Assembly: GCA_964490215.1 (NCBI GenBank)
Contig: CAZBAM010000002.1
Location: forward strand, 12,403-76,402
Reading direction: 5' to 3'
Length of the DNA: 64,000 nt
From: Candidatus Micrarchaeota archaeon
GTDB taxonomy: Archaea > Micrarchaeota > Micrarchaeia > Anstonellales > Bilamarchaeaceae
Program-made: the position numbers and the translations under genes
Notes under the pieces: model-generated
Seen by the model: the letters and a program-made list of their open reading frames with translations, nothing else
Databases searched by the model: none
Told to the model about the DNA's origin: nothing
In this document: positions 49,877-63,230 of the stretch, piece by piece
Layout: the number at the start of each line of letters is the position of its first letter
Numbering within the stretch: the first letter of the stretch is position 1

Positions 49877-50050
49877 GGGCCCATAGTCGAGTTCCGCCTT
49901 TTGGAAAAAGCGTTGCCGCAATCTCGCGGCAACATTTGACGCTCAAAGCGTCAAAGGCGGCCCAAAACTTATTGTTTAGGGCATGACGACAATGGTTAAG
50001 ACGTCGCTCTTACACAGCGAAGATCCCCAGTTCGATCCTGGGTGGGCCCA
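49877..50050 (+). tRNA. tRNA-Val (anticodon UAC) interrupted by an approximately 100-nt intron/insertion in the D-loop (between positions 17 and 18; 5' exon 49877..49893, 3' exon 49994..50050)
   Basis: 5' exon GGGCCCAUAGUCGAGUU (acceptor, U8, A14, G15). 3' exon GGUUAAGACGUCGCUCUUACACAGCGAAGAUCCCCAGUUCGAUCCUGGGUGGGCCCA: anticodon stem-loop with UAC, 5-nt variable loop, T-arm CCCAG-UUCGAUC-CUGGG, perfectly complementary 7-bp acceptor, discriminator A. The intervening 100 nt contains two perfect hairpins closed by CCGCC/GGCGG. Confidence 0.5.
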
Positions 50051-55871: not shown

Positions 55872-57911
55872 ATGCCTTATTTCCGCCACGACCACGTGCG
55901 CCCCCACCAGAAGGAGCTGATGGAGGACATCTATTCGGCAATATGCGACGGCAGGAACTTCATGGCTCAGGCGCCCACGGGCAGCGGGAAGACCGACGCG
56001 GCGCTTTCGGCAGCCATAACCTGCGCCCTGGAGCGGAACCAGACGGTCTTTTTCCTCACGCCCAAGATATCACAGCACCGCATCGCGCTTGACGTCGTGC
56101 GCGGCATCGCGAAAAAGCATTCGCTCCAGCTGCGGGCCGTGGACATCGTGGGCAGGTTCCACTGCTGCATAGACCGGTCGCTCTCCCAGCTTGACAACGA
56201 GAGCTTCCAGAACGCGTGCGCCAGGAGGCGGAAGAAGCAGGAGTGCATTTTCTACGGGAACGCGCGGGGCTACGGCCGCCTTGGCGAGCTTAAGGCCGAG
56301 CTGGCGTTCAGGAAGGCCATTGGCGGCTACGGTGCAGCCAGGGGCCACGAAGAGCTCATCGCCCTCGGCATGGAGCACGGCTGCTGCCCCTACGAATGGC
56401 TGCTGAAGCTGGGCGAATCGTCCAACGTGATAATCGCGGACTACTACCACCTCATGGTGCCGAAGATACGTGACATGTTCCTGGCCAAGGTCAGGAAGCG
56501 GCTTGAGGACTCCATCGTCATAATAGACGAGGCGCACAACCTCGCCTCGCGCGTGCGCGAGAGCATGTCCAGCTCGGTGAACGGCTTCACGTTCATGCGC
56601 GTGAGGAAGGAGATGCGCTCGCTCGGCATGGACGCAGGCCCGGTGGACGAGGAGTTCGCGCTCTGGGCAGAGCGGATACTCGCCATGGACGAGGAGCGCA
56701 TCGTCTCCCCGTATTCGCTGCACGATTTCATCGCAGGCTTCGGCCTGACGCTTGACGAGATACTGCCGAAGCTGGCAGAGGCGGGTTTTGACGTCGTGGA
56801 GAAGACCGGCAGGAAGAGCGCCTGCCTGAAGCTCGCAGGCTTCCTGACAGCCTGGGGCGAGGGCGAGGACGAGTGCGTGCGCGTGCTGAAGCGGAAGAAC
56901 GGCAATTTCCACCTTTCAAAGCGACTGCTGGACCCATCGCCGGCCACTAAGGCGCTGAACGCATGCGCCTCGTCCGTGCTCATGAGCGGTACGCTGCTGC
57001 CGCTGCAGATGCACAGGGACGTGCTCGGCCTTGACCCGCAGCGGACCACGATGAAGAGCTACCAGTCGCCCTTCAGCACGGACAGCATAGTGAATATCGT
57101 GACGCCGGACGTGACGACCAGGTATTCGCGGCGCGACGAGGCTGGCTATGCAGCCATAGCAGGCAAGCTTGACCCGGTCATAGAAGCGACGCCGGGCGGC
57201 ACTGCGATATTCTTCCCGTCCTACGTCGTCATGGACGCGGTCCTCCCGCTCATGCGCCAGCGCAGCATGCTGGTTCAGAAAAGCGGCATGAGGCCGCACG
57301 AGGTCAGGCAGATGCTCAAGGACTTCAGGAACTGCCAGCCGGTAGGAGAGGGCAGGGGCATAGGCACGAAGGCCGCGGGCGGCGGGCCGGGTGCTGATGG
57401 AGTGCCGTGTGGGGACAGTGTGCCGGGCAGGGCCGGCGTGCCTGGTGCGGATGGCGTAGGTATGACGGTCGCGGACGGCGTGCCGCGTGGTGGCCGTGTG
57501 CCGTGCGGGCAGGTGCTCTGCGGGGTGCAGGGCGGATCCCTGGCAGAGGGCGTTGATTATTGCGTGGGCGAGATAAAGACCATCGTCATCGTGGGCGTGG
57601 CCCTGGACGAGATGGACGTGGAAAAACGCGCGCTCATAGACTATTACGACGGGAAGTTCGGCAGGGGCTGGGACTACGGCTACCTCTACCCCGGCACCAT
57701 AAAGGCGCTGCAGGCAGCCGGAAGGGCAAGGCGGAAGGAGGGCGACCGCGTCGCCGTGGTCTACATGGACGAGCGCTTCGGGTGGAGCAGGTACTCATGG
57801 ATTTTAAACACGAAAGAGAAAATCGTTGTGTCAGAAAGCCCGGAACACGAGGTCCGGCGCTTCTGGAAAGAAGCCGTGAAAGGAAAAGAAGCAGTGAAAG
57901 CGATGGTGTAG
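55872..57911 (+). CDS. xpd: XPD/Rad3-like (DinG-family) SF2 helicase with 4Fe-4S domain; carries a Gly/Pro/Val-rich repeat insertion
   Basis: Walker A AQAPTGSGKTDAAL; FeS Cys (FHCCID...C...C); DEAH (IIDEAHNL); insertion GIGTKAAGGGPGADGVPCGDSVPGRAGVPGADGVGMTVADGVPRGGRVPCGQ at about 57345..57512. Confidence 0.7.
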   Translation: MPYFRHDHVRPHQKELMEDIYSAICDGRNFMAQAPTGSGKTDAALSAAITCALERNQTVFFLTPKISQHRIALDVVRGIAKKHSLQLRAVDIVGRFHCCIDRSLSQLDNESFQNACARRRKKQECIFYGNARGYGRLGELKAELAFRKAIGGYGAARGHEELIALGMEHGCCPYEWLLKLGESSNVIIADYYHLMVPKIRDMFLAKVRKRLEDSIVIIDEAHNLASRVRESMSSSVNGFTFMRVRKEMRSLGMDAGPVDEEFALWAERILAMDEERIVSPYSLHDFIAGFGLTLDEILPKLAEAGFDVVEKTGRKSACLKLAGFLTAWGEGEDECVRVLKRKNGNFHLSKRLLDPSPATKALNACASSVLMSGTLLPLQMHRDVLGLDPQRTTMKSYQSPFSTDSIVNIVTPDVTTRYSRRDEAGYAAIAGKLDPVIEATPGGTAIFFPSYVVMDAVLPLMRQRSMLVQKSGMRPHEVRQMLKDFRNCQPVGEGRGIGTKAAGGGPGADGVPCGDSVPGRAGVPGADGVGMTVADGVPRGGRVPCGQVLCGVQGGSLAEGVDYCVGEIKTIVIVGVALDEMDVEKRALIDYYDGKFGRGWDYGYLYPGTIKALQAAGRARRKEGDRVAVVYMDERFGWSRYSWILNTKEKIVVSESPEHEVRRFWKEAVKGKEAVKAMV

Positions 57912-59090
57912 ATGCTTTACACAGTCAAATACGCTCCTAAGAACCTTGGCGGGCTGCTTGGCAACGAGGAGAAGGTCGCCCAGGTGAAGAACTGGGTCCT
58001 CCAGTGGCTCAGCGGCAGGAAGAGGAAGCCGCTCCTCGTCTGGGGACCGCCTGGCACAGGCAAGACGTCCCTGGCCTATGCCATAAAACAGGAGTTTGAC
58101 CTTGACCTGCTGGAACTGAACGCCAGCGAGCTGCGCAACCGCGAGCGCGTGGAGCGCATAACTCACGGTGCGTCGCTGGCAGGCGGGCTTTTCGGCCGCG
58201 GCAGGCTCGTCCTAATAGACGACGCGGACGTGCTTGCAGGCCGGGCGGACAGCGGCGGCTCAGGCGCCATTACCGACTTCCTGCGCGAATCGCCCTGCCC
58301 GACCATAGTCACTGCCACTGACGTCTGGGACAAGAAGCTGGCGCCCATACGCAATGAATGTGAAGTCGTTGAATTGAAGCGCGTGAGCAAGGTCTCCATA
58401 CGGAAGCTGCTGGCGCACATCTCTTCCACTGAGAAGCTCGGGCTCTCGGCCGATGCCATAGGCGCCATGGCTGACAACTCGCACGGGGACGTGCGCGCCG
58501 CGCTGAACGACCTCCAGGCACTCACCCCGACCTTGCGCGACACTGAAAAGGACATCTTCACAGTCGTCAGGGACATACTCAAGGCAGAGACCTACGCGGC
58601 TGCCAGGGAAGCGGTCCGCGGGGACCTGGACTACGACTACATAAAACTGTGGATAGACGAAAATATCCCGCTTGAATACGAGACCGCGGCAGACATAGCG
58701 GCCGCCTACGACTCGCTTTCCAAGGCCGACATATTTGACGGCCGGATAAAGAAGCAGAAGTGGCAGCTGCTGAAGTATTCCATAGACCTCGCGACAGCCG
58801 GCGTGGCGCTGGCGAAGTCGCGGCCCTACCGCAAGTTCACGAAATACAATTTCCCGTCCTACCTGAGGAACATGTCAAGGAGCATGGAGCGCAGGGCGAT
58901 GCTGAAGGCGATAGGGACGAAGCTGGGCGCGAGGCTGCACACCGGACGGAAGGCCGCGCTCTATTACCTGCCCCTGATAAAGGAATACGGGAAGGACGAG
59001 CCCCAGGCTGTCATGGATTTCTACGGCCTTGACGAAGAGCAGTTCGCGTTCATAATGGAGACGAGCGTCAGCCGCGTGAAGCGGAAGTAA
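57912..59090 (+). CDS. rfcL: Replication factor C large subunit
   Basis: W..KYAPK...; Walker A LLVWGPPGTGKTSLA; ELNASELR clamp-loader box. Confidence 0.65.
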   Translation: MLYTVKYAPKNLGGLLGNEEKVAQVKNWVLQWLSGRKRKPLLVWGPPGTGKTSLAYAIKQEFDLDLLELNASELRNRERVERITHGASLAGGLFGRGRLVLIDDADVLAGRADSGGSGAITDFLRESPCPTIVTATDVWDKKLAPIRNECEVVELKRVSKVSIRKLLAHISSTEKLGLSADAIGAMADNSHGDVRAALNDLQALTPTLRDTEKDIFTVVRDILKAETYAAAREAVRGDLDYDYIKLWIDENIPLEYETAADIAAAYDSLSKADIFDGRIKKQKWQLLKYSIDLATAGVALAKSRPYRKFTKYNFPSYLRNMSRSMERRAMLKAIGTKLGARLHTGRKAALYYLPLIKEYGKDEPQAVMDFYGLDEEQFAFIMETSVSRVKRK

Positions 59091-59105
59091 GCAGGTTCAT
59101 TGCGG

Positions 59106-59525
59106 CTAGCTCAGCACACGTGCGACATCGTCGTGGATGAAGCCGCTACCATCGCCGTCGCGCAGCAGCATTATCTGCCATTTTGGGTGCTTGCCAAATT
59201 GCTCGCCTGTCAATTCCATTGCAAGGACCTCGAGCGGCTTGCTGACAATACTGTCCATTGCAGCGCAGACGTTATGGCATGGATTACCCGAATCGGAACT
59301 TGTCATGGAGCAGATCATCCTCCTTTCAAGAAGAAGCGTTTTGCCATTGATTGTGGCGTATACGAGATAAGAGCCTCCATTACTGTTTCCTATACCCTCA
59401 AAAATCGGCGGGTATGGAGACCCCTCTTTGGCGAAAAATAGCCTTGCATCACGAGCATGAACCGCACCAGGAACTTCTTTCAGCCCAGTAAGCACTTTGT
59501 CAAATAATTCTTTTTTAAGTTTCAT
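59106..59525 (-). CDS. Hypothetical small protein in an AT-richer patch (possible C-x10-CH-x2-C zinc-ribbon-like motif)
   Basis: ORF with TATA-like tttttaaataaa about 25 nt upstream on the minus strand; composition differs from the neighbours. Confidence 0.25.
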   Translation of the reverse strand: MKLKKELFDKVLTGLKEVPGAVHARDARLFFAKEGSPYPPIFEGIGNSNGGSYLVYATINGKTLLLERRMICSMTSSDSGNPCHNVCAAMDSIVSKPLEVLAMELTGEQFGKHPKWQIMLLRDGDGSGFIHDDVARVLS

Positions 59526-59593
59526 GCAGATTACCCTGTGCCGTTTTATTTAAAAATCTACCACCTGTCAGACGCCGGCCACCTTGCCACCTG

Positions 59594-62500
59594 TCAGAAG
59601 TCGGTCATCTTCATTTGGCCTTCCTTCGGCTTGGGTTTTGCGGTCTTTTTCAGCTCGTCGGCGACGACGAACGAATCGTCATGCCTCCTCGCCCTGCCGG
59701 CCATCGTGTCTGCAGGAACGAAGGCCTGCGCCCTGCCCCCTGCAATCTCGCCTGCCCGCTTCATGCCGTGCAGTATGCTCTTCATCCTCTTCTCGCGGTT
59801 CTGGGACGCGTAATGGTAGTACTCGTCCCTCGTCCCCTTCGTCATCAGCACGATTACCTCGCCTTCCTTGAGGCGGGCGGCGCGCCCTCTCCGCTGGATG
59901 GTGCGTATCTCGCTGGGAACAGGCTCGTAGAATATGACCGCATCAACCGCAGGTATGTCCAGGCCTTCCTCGCCGATGCTTGACGCGACCATGGCGTCAA
60001 ACTTCCCTGCGCGGAACTCCGCGATGGTCTCCTCCTGCATCTTCCTGGTCACGCCCTCCTTCTTGCCCACGAAACGTTTCGCGCTTATGCCGTTCGCCCT
60101 CAGCACGTCCTCAATGCGCGCTATCTGCGAGCGGTACTGGACGAAGACTATCATCTTCTTCCCTGCGCCGGAGAGCCTCTTCACGGTCTCCACCAGCACC
60201 TTCATCTTGGGGTGGTCCTCGTCCTTCAGGCACAGCTCCTTCACCTTCGCCATCCCGGGCTCGTTCAGGAGCAGTTTCGCTGACTTGCCCTCCTTCGCCT
60301 CCAGCTTCGCTATGTATTCCCGCAGCGGGTAGATGCCCTGGGTCTCAAGCAGTTCGGTCATGTGGAGCAGGTGGAGCAGGGCGTAATACTGCACGAGCGC
60401 AGGGAATTTGATGTTGTGGGGGATGTTGCGTATGCGCTCGCCGAGCGCGAGGAAATTGCCCTTGTGCCTCAGCGGGGGCGGGAATCCCATGCCCGCGAGC
60501 CGCTGCGCGTGTTTTCCGGTGAGCGCGTCCAGTTCGGACTTGAGAGCCCGGAAATGGCCGGACAGGTCCACAGGCACCCAGGTTATCGTGCTTTTCTGCA
60601 CGTACGGCGAGACGTCCGCGTCGTCCTGGCCGCGTATCTCCACATTGGTTATTTTCAGGTTATTCAATACGTCATTTATTCTCTCTCTCCTGCCTCCAGG
60701 TGAGGCGGTGAGGCCCAAGATTAATGTGGTTTGCGGAAGTTTTTCTGCTATGTAAGTGTAAGCATAATCCTTAACCGCCCGATGAGCTTCATCAAATACG
60801 CATAACGAAAAATTCTCCAGGCTGATGCGATTGTTCTGAAGATCATTTTTTATGGTCTGCGGAGTGGAAAAAATCACATCGGCCTGATCATACAGTTCGT
60901 GTCTTTTCTCCGGAGCAACCTCCCCGGTGCATAGAACGAGATTAATGTCGTTTCTGATGAACTGCCTGAATGTTCCCAGGTGTTGTGAAGAAAGCGGTTT
61001 GGTAGGTGCGAGAATGAGGATTTTCTTATCGGGATGGCGGTCCAGACTATGAGCTACAATCAGAGCTGCGATTGAGGTATTATGCGAAATGAGAGCGCCA
61101 TAATCCCCAGCGATGAAATTTCCATTTTCCGTGCATATGTCATAAACCCACTGCGGTTTTTTTACATGAGAAATACTTTTTATTTTATCAAAAGCTATGT
61201 TTGCCTGAAGCAGCTGTTTAAGCATGTCTATTTTTCCGAATGAGCTGGCAGCGCATTTCCATTTTCTGTCCATATAGTCGATAAGCGATAAAAGTTTCTG
61301 CGGGTTTACTGTCGCGGGATTCACCCCCGCCCTTCTCAATTCAAAATTCGTGATCCTCATGGCTGTTATGATTCTCCCTATTCTACCCTGTAGTTCGGTT
61401 CGTTTATCAAGGCGCTTTATCCTACCAGCTGCATAAAGTAAGCGAATATAAGGTGACCCATCTTTGATTTTTGGGAAATATCTGCCCCCGCTCCATGCTT
61501 TGTACTGCTTACCGATAATTTCCGTATCTCTCAAAAAGCTTCTCGTGCCCCTCCCTGTCTTGAGTTGCCCCTTTATATCCAAAATCTCCCTGAAAACGTT
61601 TAGCGCATCCACATCCCGACTAATAGATTGTAATTCCGCCCTTCTTTCTTCCAAAACAGATACGATATACGCCAGCATGTTCCGCGAGGGATTCCGTATG
61701 CCCCTTTCATAGATTCCGAAATCAGACAATTGATTAAAGTCCTTTCCCTTCGAGGTCACAAGGCCCATGCTTTTTCTTATTTCCCCCAGTATTTTGCCGA
61801 CTGGAAGCACATCCACGTTCGTGTTGGCTATTTTTGCCGACTTTGTTATCCTAGCCAGCCGTTCCTTTCTTTCCGGTTGTTTAAAACCTATGTAATCTTC
61901 AAACAATTTGAGGTTTTCTTTGCCCTCAATGTTGATCCGGTAATACGTCCTTTCTTTTGGGTTTGGAGAATTTGTCGCTTTGGATTTTTTTGGTCTGACT
62001 CTGCATACGATGCCAAATCTTAACAAAAGATACGGCAATGCCTGCGCCATTCTTTTGCTTGCAGTCATAAATTCGATGAGCCCATCTTTCCGTACCGAAC
62101 CATCGCCGTCATATAAGCCACAAATAAAAGCGGAGACCACCCCGGCCGGTGCCCTCATTATCGCTTTTGGTACTATCTTGTCTCTTGAATGACAATTAGT
62201 TATGCCGAATGCGGATCTTAGAAAGTAAATAAGGGCAGTTGAACTGACATGTAAACCCCCATCTATTTTTGTGGTTTCCAGGCCAAAAAGGGTTCTTGAA
62301 AGAATTTCGAAATCTTTTAGGATGACCTCGTCTTCATTGTAAAAGTTTATGCCACCATCGAGACGGGCTTCCGCTGTTATCAGACCCAAAAATCGGGCCA
62401 ATTCAGGGGTCAACTCGTCAACTGGCTTCACTACGTCCTTCGAACTTCTGCCTCCTACGCAATAAACCCCCAGAACCTTTCCGTCATACCCGCTTACAAA

Positions 62501-63052
62501 TCTCTTTCCCGGTACGCTCTCAAATACTTTGCAAAAGTCTATTCTGGTTTCATGTGCCGCAGGGCTGATTTTGTTTGGGATGGCCACCCAGTCCTTCAAT
62601 TTCAATTCAGCAGCGCTGACCCATGAAAAATCTTTATCAAAACCAAGAATGAGGTGTTCCGGGGTTACCCGAACCGATATGCCCGCCTCTGTTTCTACTT
62701 CGATGATCTCATCGGCTTTGAATTTACAAAATGCTATGACCTCCGTTGCTTTAATACCATGCTCTGTGAATGAGACGACCCGCAAATCCCGTGATTGATT
62801 GAGCGTGATGGACCCATTATGCATCTGAAAGCCCGGTGAACTTGCCAGTGCTTTTTCAACAAGTTCGCCCATGTACTCCGTCTGGCCGTTTTCCAGAAGT
62901 ATTAAGTCTTCAAAACCATGACATTTTCCCAAACCCGTTGGGAGGACGACTAGTGTATTTTTATCCATTGCAGATCTTGCTATCGCTTCCTGATAATCTC
63001 GTCTCTCGATTACGTTCGGATTAATTAGTGAATGGCTGACGTATTCCTTCAT
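59594..63052 (-). CDS. hef: Hef/FANCM-type SF2 helicase (helicase-only, no ERCC4 nuclease domain) interrupted by a 615-aa intein in the P-loop
   Basis: RRDYQ; LPTGLGK|C...intein...HN|TSIAAL; DEAH (VFDEAHRA); motif VI QRRGRAAR. Extein about 537 aa. Confidence 0.7.
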   Translation of the reverse strand: MKEYVSHSLINPNVIERRDYQEAIARSAMDKNTLVVLPTGLGKCHGFEDLILLENGQTEYMGELVEKALASSPGFQMHNGSITLNQSRDLRVVSFTEHGIKATEVIAFCKFKADEIIEVETEAGISVRVTPEHLILGFDKDFSWVSAAELKLKDWVAIPNKISPAAHETRIDFCKVFESVPGKRFVSGYDGKVLGVYCVGGRSSKDVVKPVDELTPELARFLGLITAEARLDGGINFYNEDEVILKDFEILSRTLFGLETTKIDGGLHVSSTALIYFLRSAFGITNCHSRDKIVPKAIMRAPAGVVSAFICGLYDGDGSVRKDGLIEFMTASKRMAQALPYLLLRFGIVCRVRPKKSKATNSPNPKERTYYRINIEGKENLKLFEDYIGFKQPERKERLARITKSAKIANTNVDVLPVGKILGEIRKSMGLVTSKGKDFNQLSDFGIYERGIRNPSRNMLAYIVSVLEERRAELQSISRDVDALNVFREILDIKGQLKTGRGTRSFLRDTEIIGKQYKAWSGGRYFPKIKDGSPYIRLLYAAGRIKRLDKRTELQGRIGRIITAMRITNFELRRAGVNPATVNPQKLLSLIDYMDRKWKCAASSFGKIDMLKQLLQANIAFDKIKSISHVKKPQWVYDICTENGNFIAGDYGALISHNTSIAALIVAHSLDRHPDKKILILAPTKPLSSQHLGTFRQFIRNDINLVLCTGEVAPEKRHELYDQADVIFSTPQTIKNDLQNNRISLENFSLCVFDEAHRAVKDYAYTYIAEKLPQTTLILGLTASPGGRRERINDVLNNLKITNVEIRGQDDADVSPYVQKSTITWVPVDLSGHFRALKSELDALTGKHAQRLAGMGFPPPLRHKGNFLALGERIRNIPHNIKFPALVQYYALLHLLHMTELLETQGIYPLREYIAKLEAKEGKSAKLLLNEPGMAKVKELCLKDEDHPKMKVLVETVKRLSGAGKKMIVFVQYRSQIARIEDVLRANGISAKRFVGKKEGVTRKMQEETIAEFRAGKFDAMVASSIGEEGLDIPAVDAVIFYEPVPSEIRTIQRRGRAARLKEGEVIVLMTKGTRDEYYHYASQNREKRMKSILHGMKRAGEIAGGRAQAFVPADTMAGRARRHDDSFVVADELKKTAKPKPKEGQMKMTDF
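61079..62923 (-). mobile_element. Intein (615 aa) with LAGLIDADG homing-endonuclease domain, inserted between K43 and T659 of the Hef Walker A motif
   Basis: N-terminal splice residue Cys (GLGK/CHGFEDLILLENG); C-terminal block VYDICTENGNFIAGDYGALISHN/T; LAGLIDADG-like FLGLITAEARLDGG and ICGLYDGDGSV. Confidence 0.7.
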
Positions 63053-63230
63053 GCGTAAAATATTTATGAATCACATTATAAATGCTCCTAACCCAGTCGG
63101 CAATACCACTAGCGTATTGCCTTTCTGCATGATTGAGCTGTATATCGCCAGCTGGTAGGCGCGCGGGATTAGTTCCACATCAGTAATTCGCCGGGGTTCT
63201 TTTTAACCGTTGCAGGGTGCATTTCCGCGG

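Follow-up and report, generated by a model that had tools for sequence, protein, structure and literature searches.

How an intein reached the ATP-binding loop of a DNA repair helicase, and how the gene around it came to be of mixed composition, are the questions raised by the hef locus in a 64,000-nucleotide (nt) stretch of contig CAZBAM010000002.1 from a Candidatus Micrarchaeota archaeon (the window, meaning the whole stretch that was analyzed). The gene (59594..63052, minus strand), identified from the list of open reading frames (ORFs) and from Pfam and NCBIfam matches, encodes a 1152-amino acid precursor in which a Hef/FANCM-type superfamily 2 (SF2) helicase is combined with an intein. 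As judged from its motifs and a structural model, an intact class-1 LAGLIDADG intein interrupts the Walker A loop, GLGK|T, of a helicase-only member of the Hef/FANCM family. Taken as a whole, the locus is best explained, with a probability of about 0.7, by the recent, endonuclease-initiated arrival of an intact Hef P-loop intein from a low-GC DPANN relative, with proper homing on one side only. The intein itself is ordinary in kind (LAGLIDADG, P-loop), and the scar that it left is the interesting part. The mosaic composition of the gene and a leftover native 5′ end, both absent from an initial annotation of the same DNA, are the most informative features.

An intein between Lys and Thr of the Walker A motif

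The intein comprises 615 amino acids (61079..62923, minus strand; precursor residues 44–658), exactly the interval proposed in the initial annotation, and consists of a Hint domain into which a LAGLIDADG endonuclease and a helical extension are inserted. Translation of the plus strand over this interval is riddled with stops, and a plus-strand reading was ruled out for that reason; the minus strand holds an open frame of 615 codons, and the other frames of the same DNA are full of stops. The junctions read ...LPTGLGK|CHGFEDL...GALISHN|TSIAAL..., with Cys at the start and His-Asn at the end before Thr, as had been predicted. The placement between Lys and Thr of the Walker A motif is likewise borne out, and the motifs, Pfam, and the AlphaFold2 and Foldseek results agree on a LAGLIDADG intein.

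Block A (CHGFEDLILLENG; 62885..62923, minus strand, as are all features of the intein) carries the Cys1 nucleophile, which is invariant in the relatives (alignments A1 and A3). Block B, VRVTPEHLILG (62642..62674), contains the TxxH motif (T87 and H90), the absence of which had been named as a point that could overturn the assignment; residues T87, P88, E89 and H90 are invariant in alignment A3. Both predicted LAGLIDADG blocks are present. Motif 1 (LARFLGLITAEARLDG; 62354..62401) contains the acidic residue E185, invariant in alignment A3, and motif 2 (FICGLYDGDGSV; 62093..62128), located by motif search and the Pfam model LAGLIDADG_3, contains D274, so that the two helices have the acidic ends GLITAE(185)A and GLYDGD(274)G. 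Block F (QWVYDICTENGNFIAG) and block G (GALISHN), followed by Thr+1 (61079..61153), align to the C-terminal splicing region of the TliVMA intein. The C-terminal end reads ...VYDICTENGNFIAG...GALISHN|T, with the His-Asn pair and Thr+1 in place. The catalytic residues for splicing are all kept, namely C1, T87, H90, D595, H614, N615 and T+1.

Searches with intein and LAGLIDADG models, the check suggested in the initial annotation, gave a match to Pfam Intein_splicing (PF14890) with an E-value of 1.4e-19 and 70.9 bits (cut-off 35.8). This match is split across residues 51–658, the pattern expected for a Hint domain broken by an endonuclease. Pfam LAGLIDADG_3 (PF14528) matched with 4.6e-15 and 56 bits (cut-off 22.5), and with 1.3e-15 over intein residues 262–346, and NCBIfam intein_Nterm (TIGR01445) with 6e-9 and 36.7 bits (cut-off 24.5), together with many intein-containing 'exception' models. 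An AlphaFold2 model of the intein, computed from an alignment of 20 relatives, has a mean predicted local distance difference test (pLDDT) score of 84.9 and a predicted template modeling (pTM) score of 0.83. Residues 173–344 of the model follow the alpha-beta-beta-alpha-beta-beta-alpha succession of the pseudo-dimeric LAGLIDADG fold. The best Foldseek match is the TliVMA intein (7qss; E 2.9e-26; target-normalized template modeling (TM) score 0.83), followed by PI-PkoII, PI-PfuI and PI-SceI, and there are further matches to I-DmoI and to the endonuclease domains of PI-PfuI and PI-SceI. Against the sequences of solved structures, phmmer retrieved the TliVMA and PhoVMA inteins (7.8e-23), PI-PkoII and PI-PfuI.

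The solved inteins TliVMA and PhoVMA (7QSS, 7QSU and 7QST), PI-PkoII (2CW7), PI-PfuI (1DQ3) and PI-SceI thus have the same layout of a Hint domain and a two-motif LAGLIDADG endonuclease. They differ from the window intein in that they are only 14–19% identical to it and reside in a different host gene. Moreover, a helical region of ~200 amino acids in the window intein has no counterpart in the solved inteins, and the query-normalized TM score reaches only 0.46–0.59.

The predicted route of splicing would start with an N-S acyl shift at Cys1 and proceed by transesterification to Thr+1 and cyclization of Asn615 aided by His614. Since splicing restores the P-loop, the helicase could bind ATP only after splicing. 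The spliced extein has 537 amino acids, with the helicase motifs GLGKT and DEAH, and aligns without gaps at the PTGLGK-T junction with 40 intein-free homologues of ~500 amino acids. The flanks therefore rejoin into a contiguous helicase, as the initial annotation had required of a genuine intein.

Mosaic composition of the hef gene

A likelihood change-point analysis of the GC content at third codon positions (GC3) divides hef into two parts, with GC3 of 0.453 before and 0.834 after precursor codon 803 (support 797–809; gain of 77.6 log-likelihood units). The change point corresponds to window position 60643 (60625–60661), and the neighboring genes have GC3 values of 0.78–0.83. The low-GC3 tract extends over ~2.44 kb (~60643..63085) and includes a 33-nt leader, the N-extein, the intein and ~145 codons of the C-extein. 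The N-extein (62924..63052, minus strand) has 43 codons, ends in ...LPTGLGK, and is assigned a donor origin from its GC3 of ~0.40 and its type of N-terminus, as it starts with VSHxxINPxxIExRxYQE, like Aenigmatarchaeota Hef and unlike the native Micrarchaeota MELIPRAYQ. The first ~145 codons of the C-extein (60643..61078, minus strand) represent a co-conversion tract, likewise of donor origin according to GC3 and nucleotide identity. Donor extein was thus co-converted on both flanks of the intein, the N-extein in its entirety. The remainder of the C-extein (59594..60642, minus strand), which encodes helicase lobe 2 and the tail, is native, with GC3 of 0.72–0.95 and high identity to L001 and L002, two intein-free loci of the native type.

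Nucleotide identity between the window gene and L001/L002 follows the same division. It is 0.46–0.56 at spliced codons ~40–160, rises to 0.66–0.68 near the crossover, and is 0.8–0.93 after codon ~200, except in the variable tail at the C terminus, where it drops to ~0.57. In the encoded protein, residues 189–480 of the extein are 87–91% identical to the close Micrarchaeota homologues P0001–P0003, and residues 44–188 are ~50% identical. A native heterogeneity of the hef 5′ end was considered as the source of the low GC and excluded, because GC3 of hef in L001 and L002 is nearly uniform (0.60–0.86, mostly ~0.8) and shows no 5′ dip. Between these two genes, identity is 0.8–0.9 across the N-terminal two-thirds, the region of the tract included.

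The best matches of the foreign extein piece are Aenigmatarchaeota proteins, with only 55–57% identity. Residue by residue, it is nearer to Aenigmatarchaeota Hef up to residue ~72 and nearer to Micrarchaeota Hef from ~85 to ~190, where the GC content is still low. An origin of the donor within Aenigmatarchaeota was rejected as a firm assignment, since the tract is closer to Micrarchaeota past residue ~85. Protein searches and scans of genomes and metagenomes revealed nothing above 43–45% identity for the intein or above 55–57% for the foreign extein, and a scan of GTDB representatives gave no intein match above 43%. The donor is therefore unsampled, and may itself be layered; the apparent layering of the foreign extein suggests that serial transfers of the intein may have left co-conversion tracts nested in one another.

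A stranded native 5′ end

Upstream of the chimeric gene lies a remnant of the native hef 5′ end, a GTG and 30 codons (VELIPRAYQLAIYSSIMQKGNTLVVLPTGLG; 63086..63178, minus strand), recognized by blastn, alignment and translation. The remnant corresponds to the first 87–93 nt of native hef, with 94% identity over 87 nt to L002 (blastn, E 2e-33), and is also contiguous with L001. It reads GTG-ELIPRAYQLAIYSSIMQKGNTLVVLPTGLG and continues into AFIM and a stop, so that the dead ORF runs to the TGA at 63071-63073. In native hef, GLGK is encoded by codons 29–32 and the intein site follows codon 32; the remnant stops after codon 31, 3 nt short of that site.

Between the remnant and the new ATG at 63052 lies an imported AT-rich leader of 33 nt (GCATTTATAATGTGATTCATAAATATTTTACGC; 63053..63085, minus strand). 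It contains a TATA-box-like element, TTTATAAT, at −30..−23 from the ATG, and L004 and L007, two other DPANN loci that carry a hef intein, have the same TTTATAA(T/A) element about as far upstream of their hef genes. No exact match between the donor and native N-exteins exceeds 6 nt. On the other side, native-type sequence is first matched over at least 20 nt by GACGTCTCGCCGTACGTGCAGAA, which encodes DVSPYVQK and starts at spliced nt 591, just past the GC3 switch. The exchange was therefore not a scar-free homologous one on both sides: the left junction is non-homologous and the N-extein stub is duplicated.

Proposed entry of the intein and alternative explanations

This arrangement would be the outcome of a one-sided homing event. 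Cleavage by the endonuclease would have opened the resident hef, then free of an intein, at the codons of the P-loop, and the downstream end would have recombined with the diverged donor allele, with resolution ~435–460 nt into the C-extein at DVSPYVQK. Lacking any exact match to the donor beyond 6 nt, the upstream end would have been joined illegitimately, through end-joining at a point 33 nt ahead of the start codon in the donor DNA. The product would be a chimeric gene composed of the donor TATA-like element, start codon, N-extein, intein and ~145 C-extein codons, followed by the native remainder, with the first 31 native codons stranded upstream as a stub. The GC3 contrast is unameliorated, which points to a recent event.

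A precedent is provided by the T4 td intron, whose homing under limited exon homology was described as one-sided, with illegitimate double-strand-break repair (Parker et al. 1999, summarized in PMC2988022). As outlined in that summary, the td system likewise combines homology on one side and an illegitimate junction on the other with entry into a poorly matching allele. It differs in being a laboratory phage and plasmid system with an intron, whereas the window represents a natural archaeal chromosome with an intein and an imported start codon and promoter-like element.

Several observations weigh against this interpretation. Both splicing and endonuclease activity are predictions, derived from motifs and the structural model. 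The donor-type intein-less site (CTAGTCGTCCTCCCAACGGGTTTGGGAAAA|ACCTCAATCGCAGCT...) and the native site of the L002 type (...CCGACCGGGCTGGGCAAG|ACGCTCATAGGA...) share 31–33 of 60 nt, and cleavage of the native site by the window endonuclease is therefore not assured. As the closest known sequences reach only the identities given above, the direction and recency of the transfer are read from composition alone. The TATA-like element in the leader seems to be that of the donor, its putative promoter role following from its position only. The window is probably a metagenome assembly, in which both junctions are known from the assembled sequence alone. Finally, we know of no demonstration of an end-joining pathway in DPANN archaea.

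One homologous anchor and one illegitimate junction also typify homology-facilitated illegitimate recombination after DNA uptake. A foreign 5′ half of hef that already contained the intein could have been acquired in this manner, the endonuclease being uninvolved and the position of the breakpoint coincidental. The low identity of the native and donor target sites, only ~50%, is compatible with such an acquisition, and so is a second, unrelated low-GC insert at 59091..59593, which indicates that the locus takes up foreign DNA. However, the native sequence ends 3 nt from the exact insertion site, and the chance of a random breakpoint so near the site is ~0.5% in a 1.5-kb gene; in addition, the endonuclease is intact and keeps its two acidic residues. 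Uptake independent of the endonuclease is, on balance, unlikely. An assembly artefact, in which the contig switches from the Micrarchaeota genome to hef of a co-occurring low-GC archaeon and back, is distinctly improbable. It would account for two composition switches within one gene, and the exact protein and the 40-nt junction are absent from public collections and metagenome contigs, which leaves the arrangement without independent confirmation. A switch at shared k-mers, though, would fuse the ...PTGLGK codons of the native gene with those of the donor, and would leave both the junction to the donor 5′ leader and the duplicated N-extein unexplained. Neither junction contains long repeats, the reading frame continues across the right-hand switch to give a complete helicase, and the left-hand switch falls at the biological insertion site.

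There is very little chance that the insertion is a decayed, non-splicing relic and the gene a pseudogene or a helicase with a permanently broken P-loop. Splicing activity is a prediction from sequence and model, LAGLIDADG motif 1 contains AEA where the relatives have AEG or GEG, and the relative L006 is frameshifted, all of which would suit a dead intein; against this stand the complete set of splicing residues from C1 to T+1, the open 615-codon frame amid stop-filled alternatives, and the confident AlphaFold2 model.

One-sided homing of an intact intein remains the preferred explanation. A more far-reaching version of it, to which we assign slightly better than even odds, regards the locus as a natural fossil of an intein jump between distant DPANN lineages by homeologous recombination and end-joining, with possibly layered extein baggage from serial invasions. 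If so, the intein dragged along a promoter element, a start codon and ~190 extein codons and made a chimeric repair helicase; if the layering is also real, inteins would gather extein 'baggage' over serial invasions and drive the formation of mosaic host genes. Natural examples of intein entry into alleles too diverged for two-sided homing are rare, and this single gene still shows the tract from the donor, the point of crossover, the illegitimate junction and the native 5′ end that was displaced. Confirmation by read data would make the locus unusually explicit as a natural record of how an intein entered a diverged allele. The divergence in the target site that the endonuclease tolerates, the homology that archaeal repair needs, and whether homing spreads extein, and even promoters, between lineages of genome-reduced symbionts are made testable.

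A family of hef inteins in DPANN archaea

Inteins were found at the identical site (G-x-GK|C...HN|T) in 13 other hef genes, all from DPANN archaea, with source GC contents of 0.28–0.51; the complete inteins have 511–654 amino acids. They include Aenigmatarchaeota-like loci (L004, L005 and L006), Woese/Nanoarchaeota-like loci (L007 and L045–L047) and a low-GC Micrarchaeota locus (L067/P0122). Homology to the window intein extends over the full length, and the long alleles (630–654 amino acids) share the helical insert. The closest relatives, in L004, L005 and L006, share 43% identity with the window intein along its entire length, and the maximum identity anywhere is 43–45%. The hef gene differs from that of the window in L004, L005, L006, L007 and L067, where the 5′ end is readable, as a single uninterrupted ORF begins at the start codon of hef itself and passes through the P-loop into the intein. 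In L067, the intein is cleanly inserted within the same gene order and, unlike in the window, the composition, which was checked there, is not mosaic.

Insertion into the P-loop is a well-known theme among inteins, as in RFC-S site a, MCM site a and DnaB site b (Novikova et al. 2016, PMC4760082). The inteins discussed in that work likewise occupy the Walker A motif of a replication or repair ATPase and make ATP binding dependent on splicing. The Hef/FANCM-type helicase lies outside its top intein hosts, and the terms 'Hef', 'ERCC4' and 'XPF' are absent from its main text. Our literature search retrieved no paper describing a Hef intein. The other hef inteins of DPANN archaea, with which the window intein forms a family, can be retrieved from public data but, as far as we could find, are undescribed. 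The hef P-loop inteins are so far confined to DPANN archaea, and through them Hef-type helicases would join the repair ATPases with a P-loop gated by protein splicing.

The closest named relative of the intein, in L006 (L006:4854-8260; Ca. Aenigmatarchaeota JACPJX010000049.1), has a frameshift just before block F, owing to which the gene is annotated as a 648-amino acid hypothetical protein (P0121); the frameshift reflects either decay of the allele or an error in sequencing. A Micrarchaeota-type hef fragment on a 1551-bp Joint Genome Institute (JGI) contig, P0116, contains an intein in helicase motif II (DE|CH, ...LIVHN|CHRSVGDYAYTYV), and Hef thus has at least two intein insertion points.

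An all-helical extension of the endonuclease

An all-helical extension is located between the endonuclease core and block F (intein residues 360–575; 61199..61846, minus strand), as delimited by the secondary structure of the AlphaFold2 model and by alignments. Its first ~65 residues are common to all inteins at the hef P-loop site. The inner ~135 amino acids (intein residues ~427–562; 61238..61645, minus strand) are restricted to long alleles, being present in the window, L004, L005, L006/P0121 and L007 and missing from the inteins of 511–521 amino acids at the same site. The large extra region reported in the initial annotation is therefore real, and exceeds the short alleles by ~135 amino acids, whereas the suggestion that it binds DNA found no support in a family or fold match.

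The extension gave no Pfam match at E-values up to 10 and no match in PHROGs. Its separately modeled domain has a pLDDT of 68, and Foldseek found nothing below E 0.2 in the PDB; a weak resemblance to the XRE-type repressors Stl and PrgX is not significant. Comparison by hhalign with P0140, an intein protein that contains a helix-turn-helix (HTH), gave a probability of 0.8%. A HMMER search of 1.84 billion representative proteins returned three matches, none of them over the inner insert. An HTH or other DNA-binding assignment was left unproven, with no family or fold to match; a role in DNA recognition is plausible from the position of the extension.

A Hef-family helicase that lacks the nuclease

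The precursor matches the Pfam families ResIII, DEAD, Helicase_C and RNA_helicase_helical, the last of which corresponds to a helical-bundle insert. The match to the NCBIfam Hef model PRK13766 scores 526 bits, under the equivalog cut-off of 610, and covers profile positions 44–510 of 781 only. A search of the 64-kb window with the ERCC4 nuclease by tblastn detected no ERCC4 sequence. Because of the partial PRK13766 match and the lack of ERCC4 in the window, the protein is a Hef-family helicase and not a full archaeal Hef, in which the ERCC4 nuclease and the helix-hairpin-helix domain HhH2 occur in the same polypeptide. Euryarchaeal Hef (Pyrococcus furiosus Hef, PRK13766) shares with the window gene the SF2 helicase and the helical insert, and differs by the fused ERCC4 and HhH domains; in the examined DPANN loci, the nuclease is a separate gene.

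The lack of the nuclease and HhH domains, which the initial annotation had noted for the host protein, extends across the lineage. The 120 best homologues of the extein all come from Micrarchaeota, have 449–583 amino acids, and without exception (120/120) are devoid of the nuclease; the intein is absent from all but one fragment among them. In the Aenigmatarchaeota-like and Woesearchaeota loci, hef is also nuclease-less and a separate gene for an ERCC4+HhH protein is located just downstream (L004:9211-9894, L006:9100-9825 and L007:4546-5202), with one small ORF in between in L004 and L006. Given these homologues and related DPANN loci, the helicase-only Hef is a lineage trait, not an oddity of the window gene. 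Several Aenigmatarchaeota proteins annotated as 'DEAD/DEAH box helicase' (P0153 and similar ones) have only ~200–220 amino acids and are encoded on long contigs, the largest of 71 kb, which raises the possibility that certain DPANN lineages have the hef helicase divided between two genes.

Neighboring genes and a second insertion

The gene order hef, large subunit of replication factor C (RFC), XPD and transglutaminase is the same in the intein-free loci L001 and L002. The succession of the XPD-like helicase, the RFC large subunit and hef, which is convergent with the RFC large subunit gene, is conserved across high-GC Micrarchaeota (55872-59090 in the window, L001 and L002), and hef still adjoins the RFC large subunit gene in the low-GC locus L067.

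The stop codons of the RFC large subunit gene and hef are separated in the window by a stretch of ~500 bp (59091..59593) with a GC content of 0.45–0.49. Since the two genes abut in L001 and L002, this stretch represents a second insertion at the locus. It contains an ORF of 139 amino acids (59106..59525, minus strand), which was considered as part of the same event as the intein or as a known mobile gene and rejected on both counts, as it has no homologue in the compared loci, Pfam, PHROGs or plasmids. A tandem direct repeat of 25 nt, 84% identical, occupies 59561-59585 and 59587-59611. The latter copy comprises the last hef codons and the stop, and the former lies immediately downstream, at the edge of the insert; the repeat may be a junction duplication from the insertion of 59091..59593. 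The sole Rfam match in the window is one tRNA gene at 49979-50050 on the plus strand.

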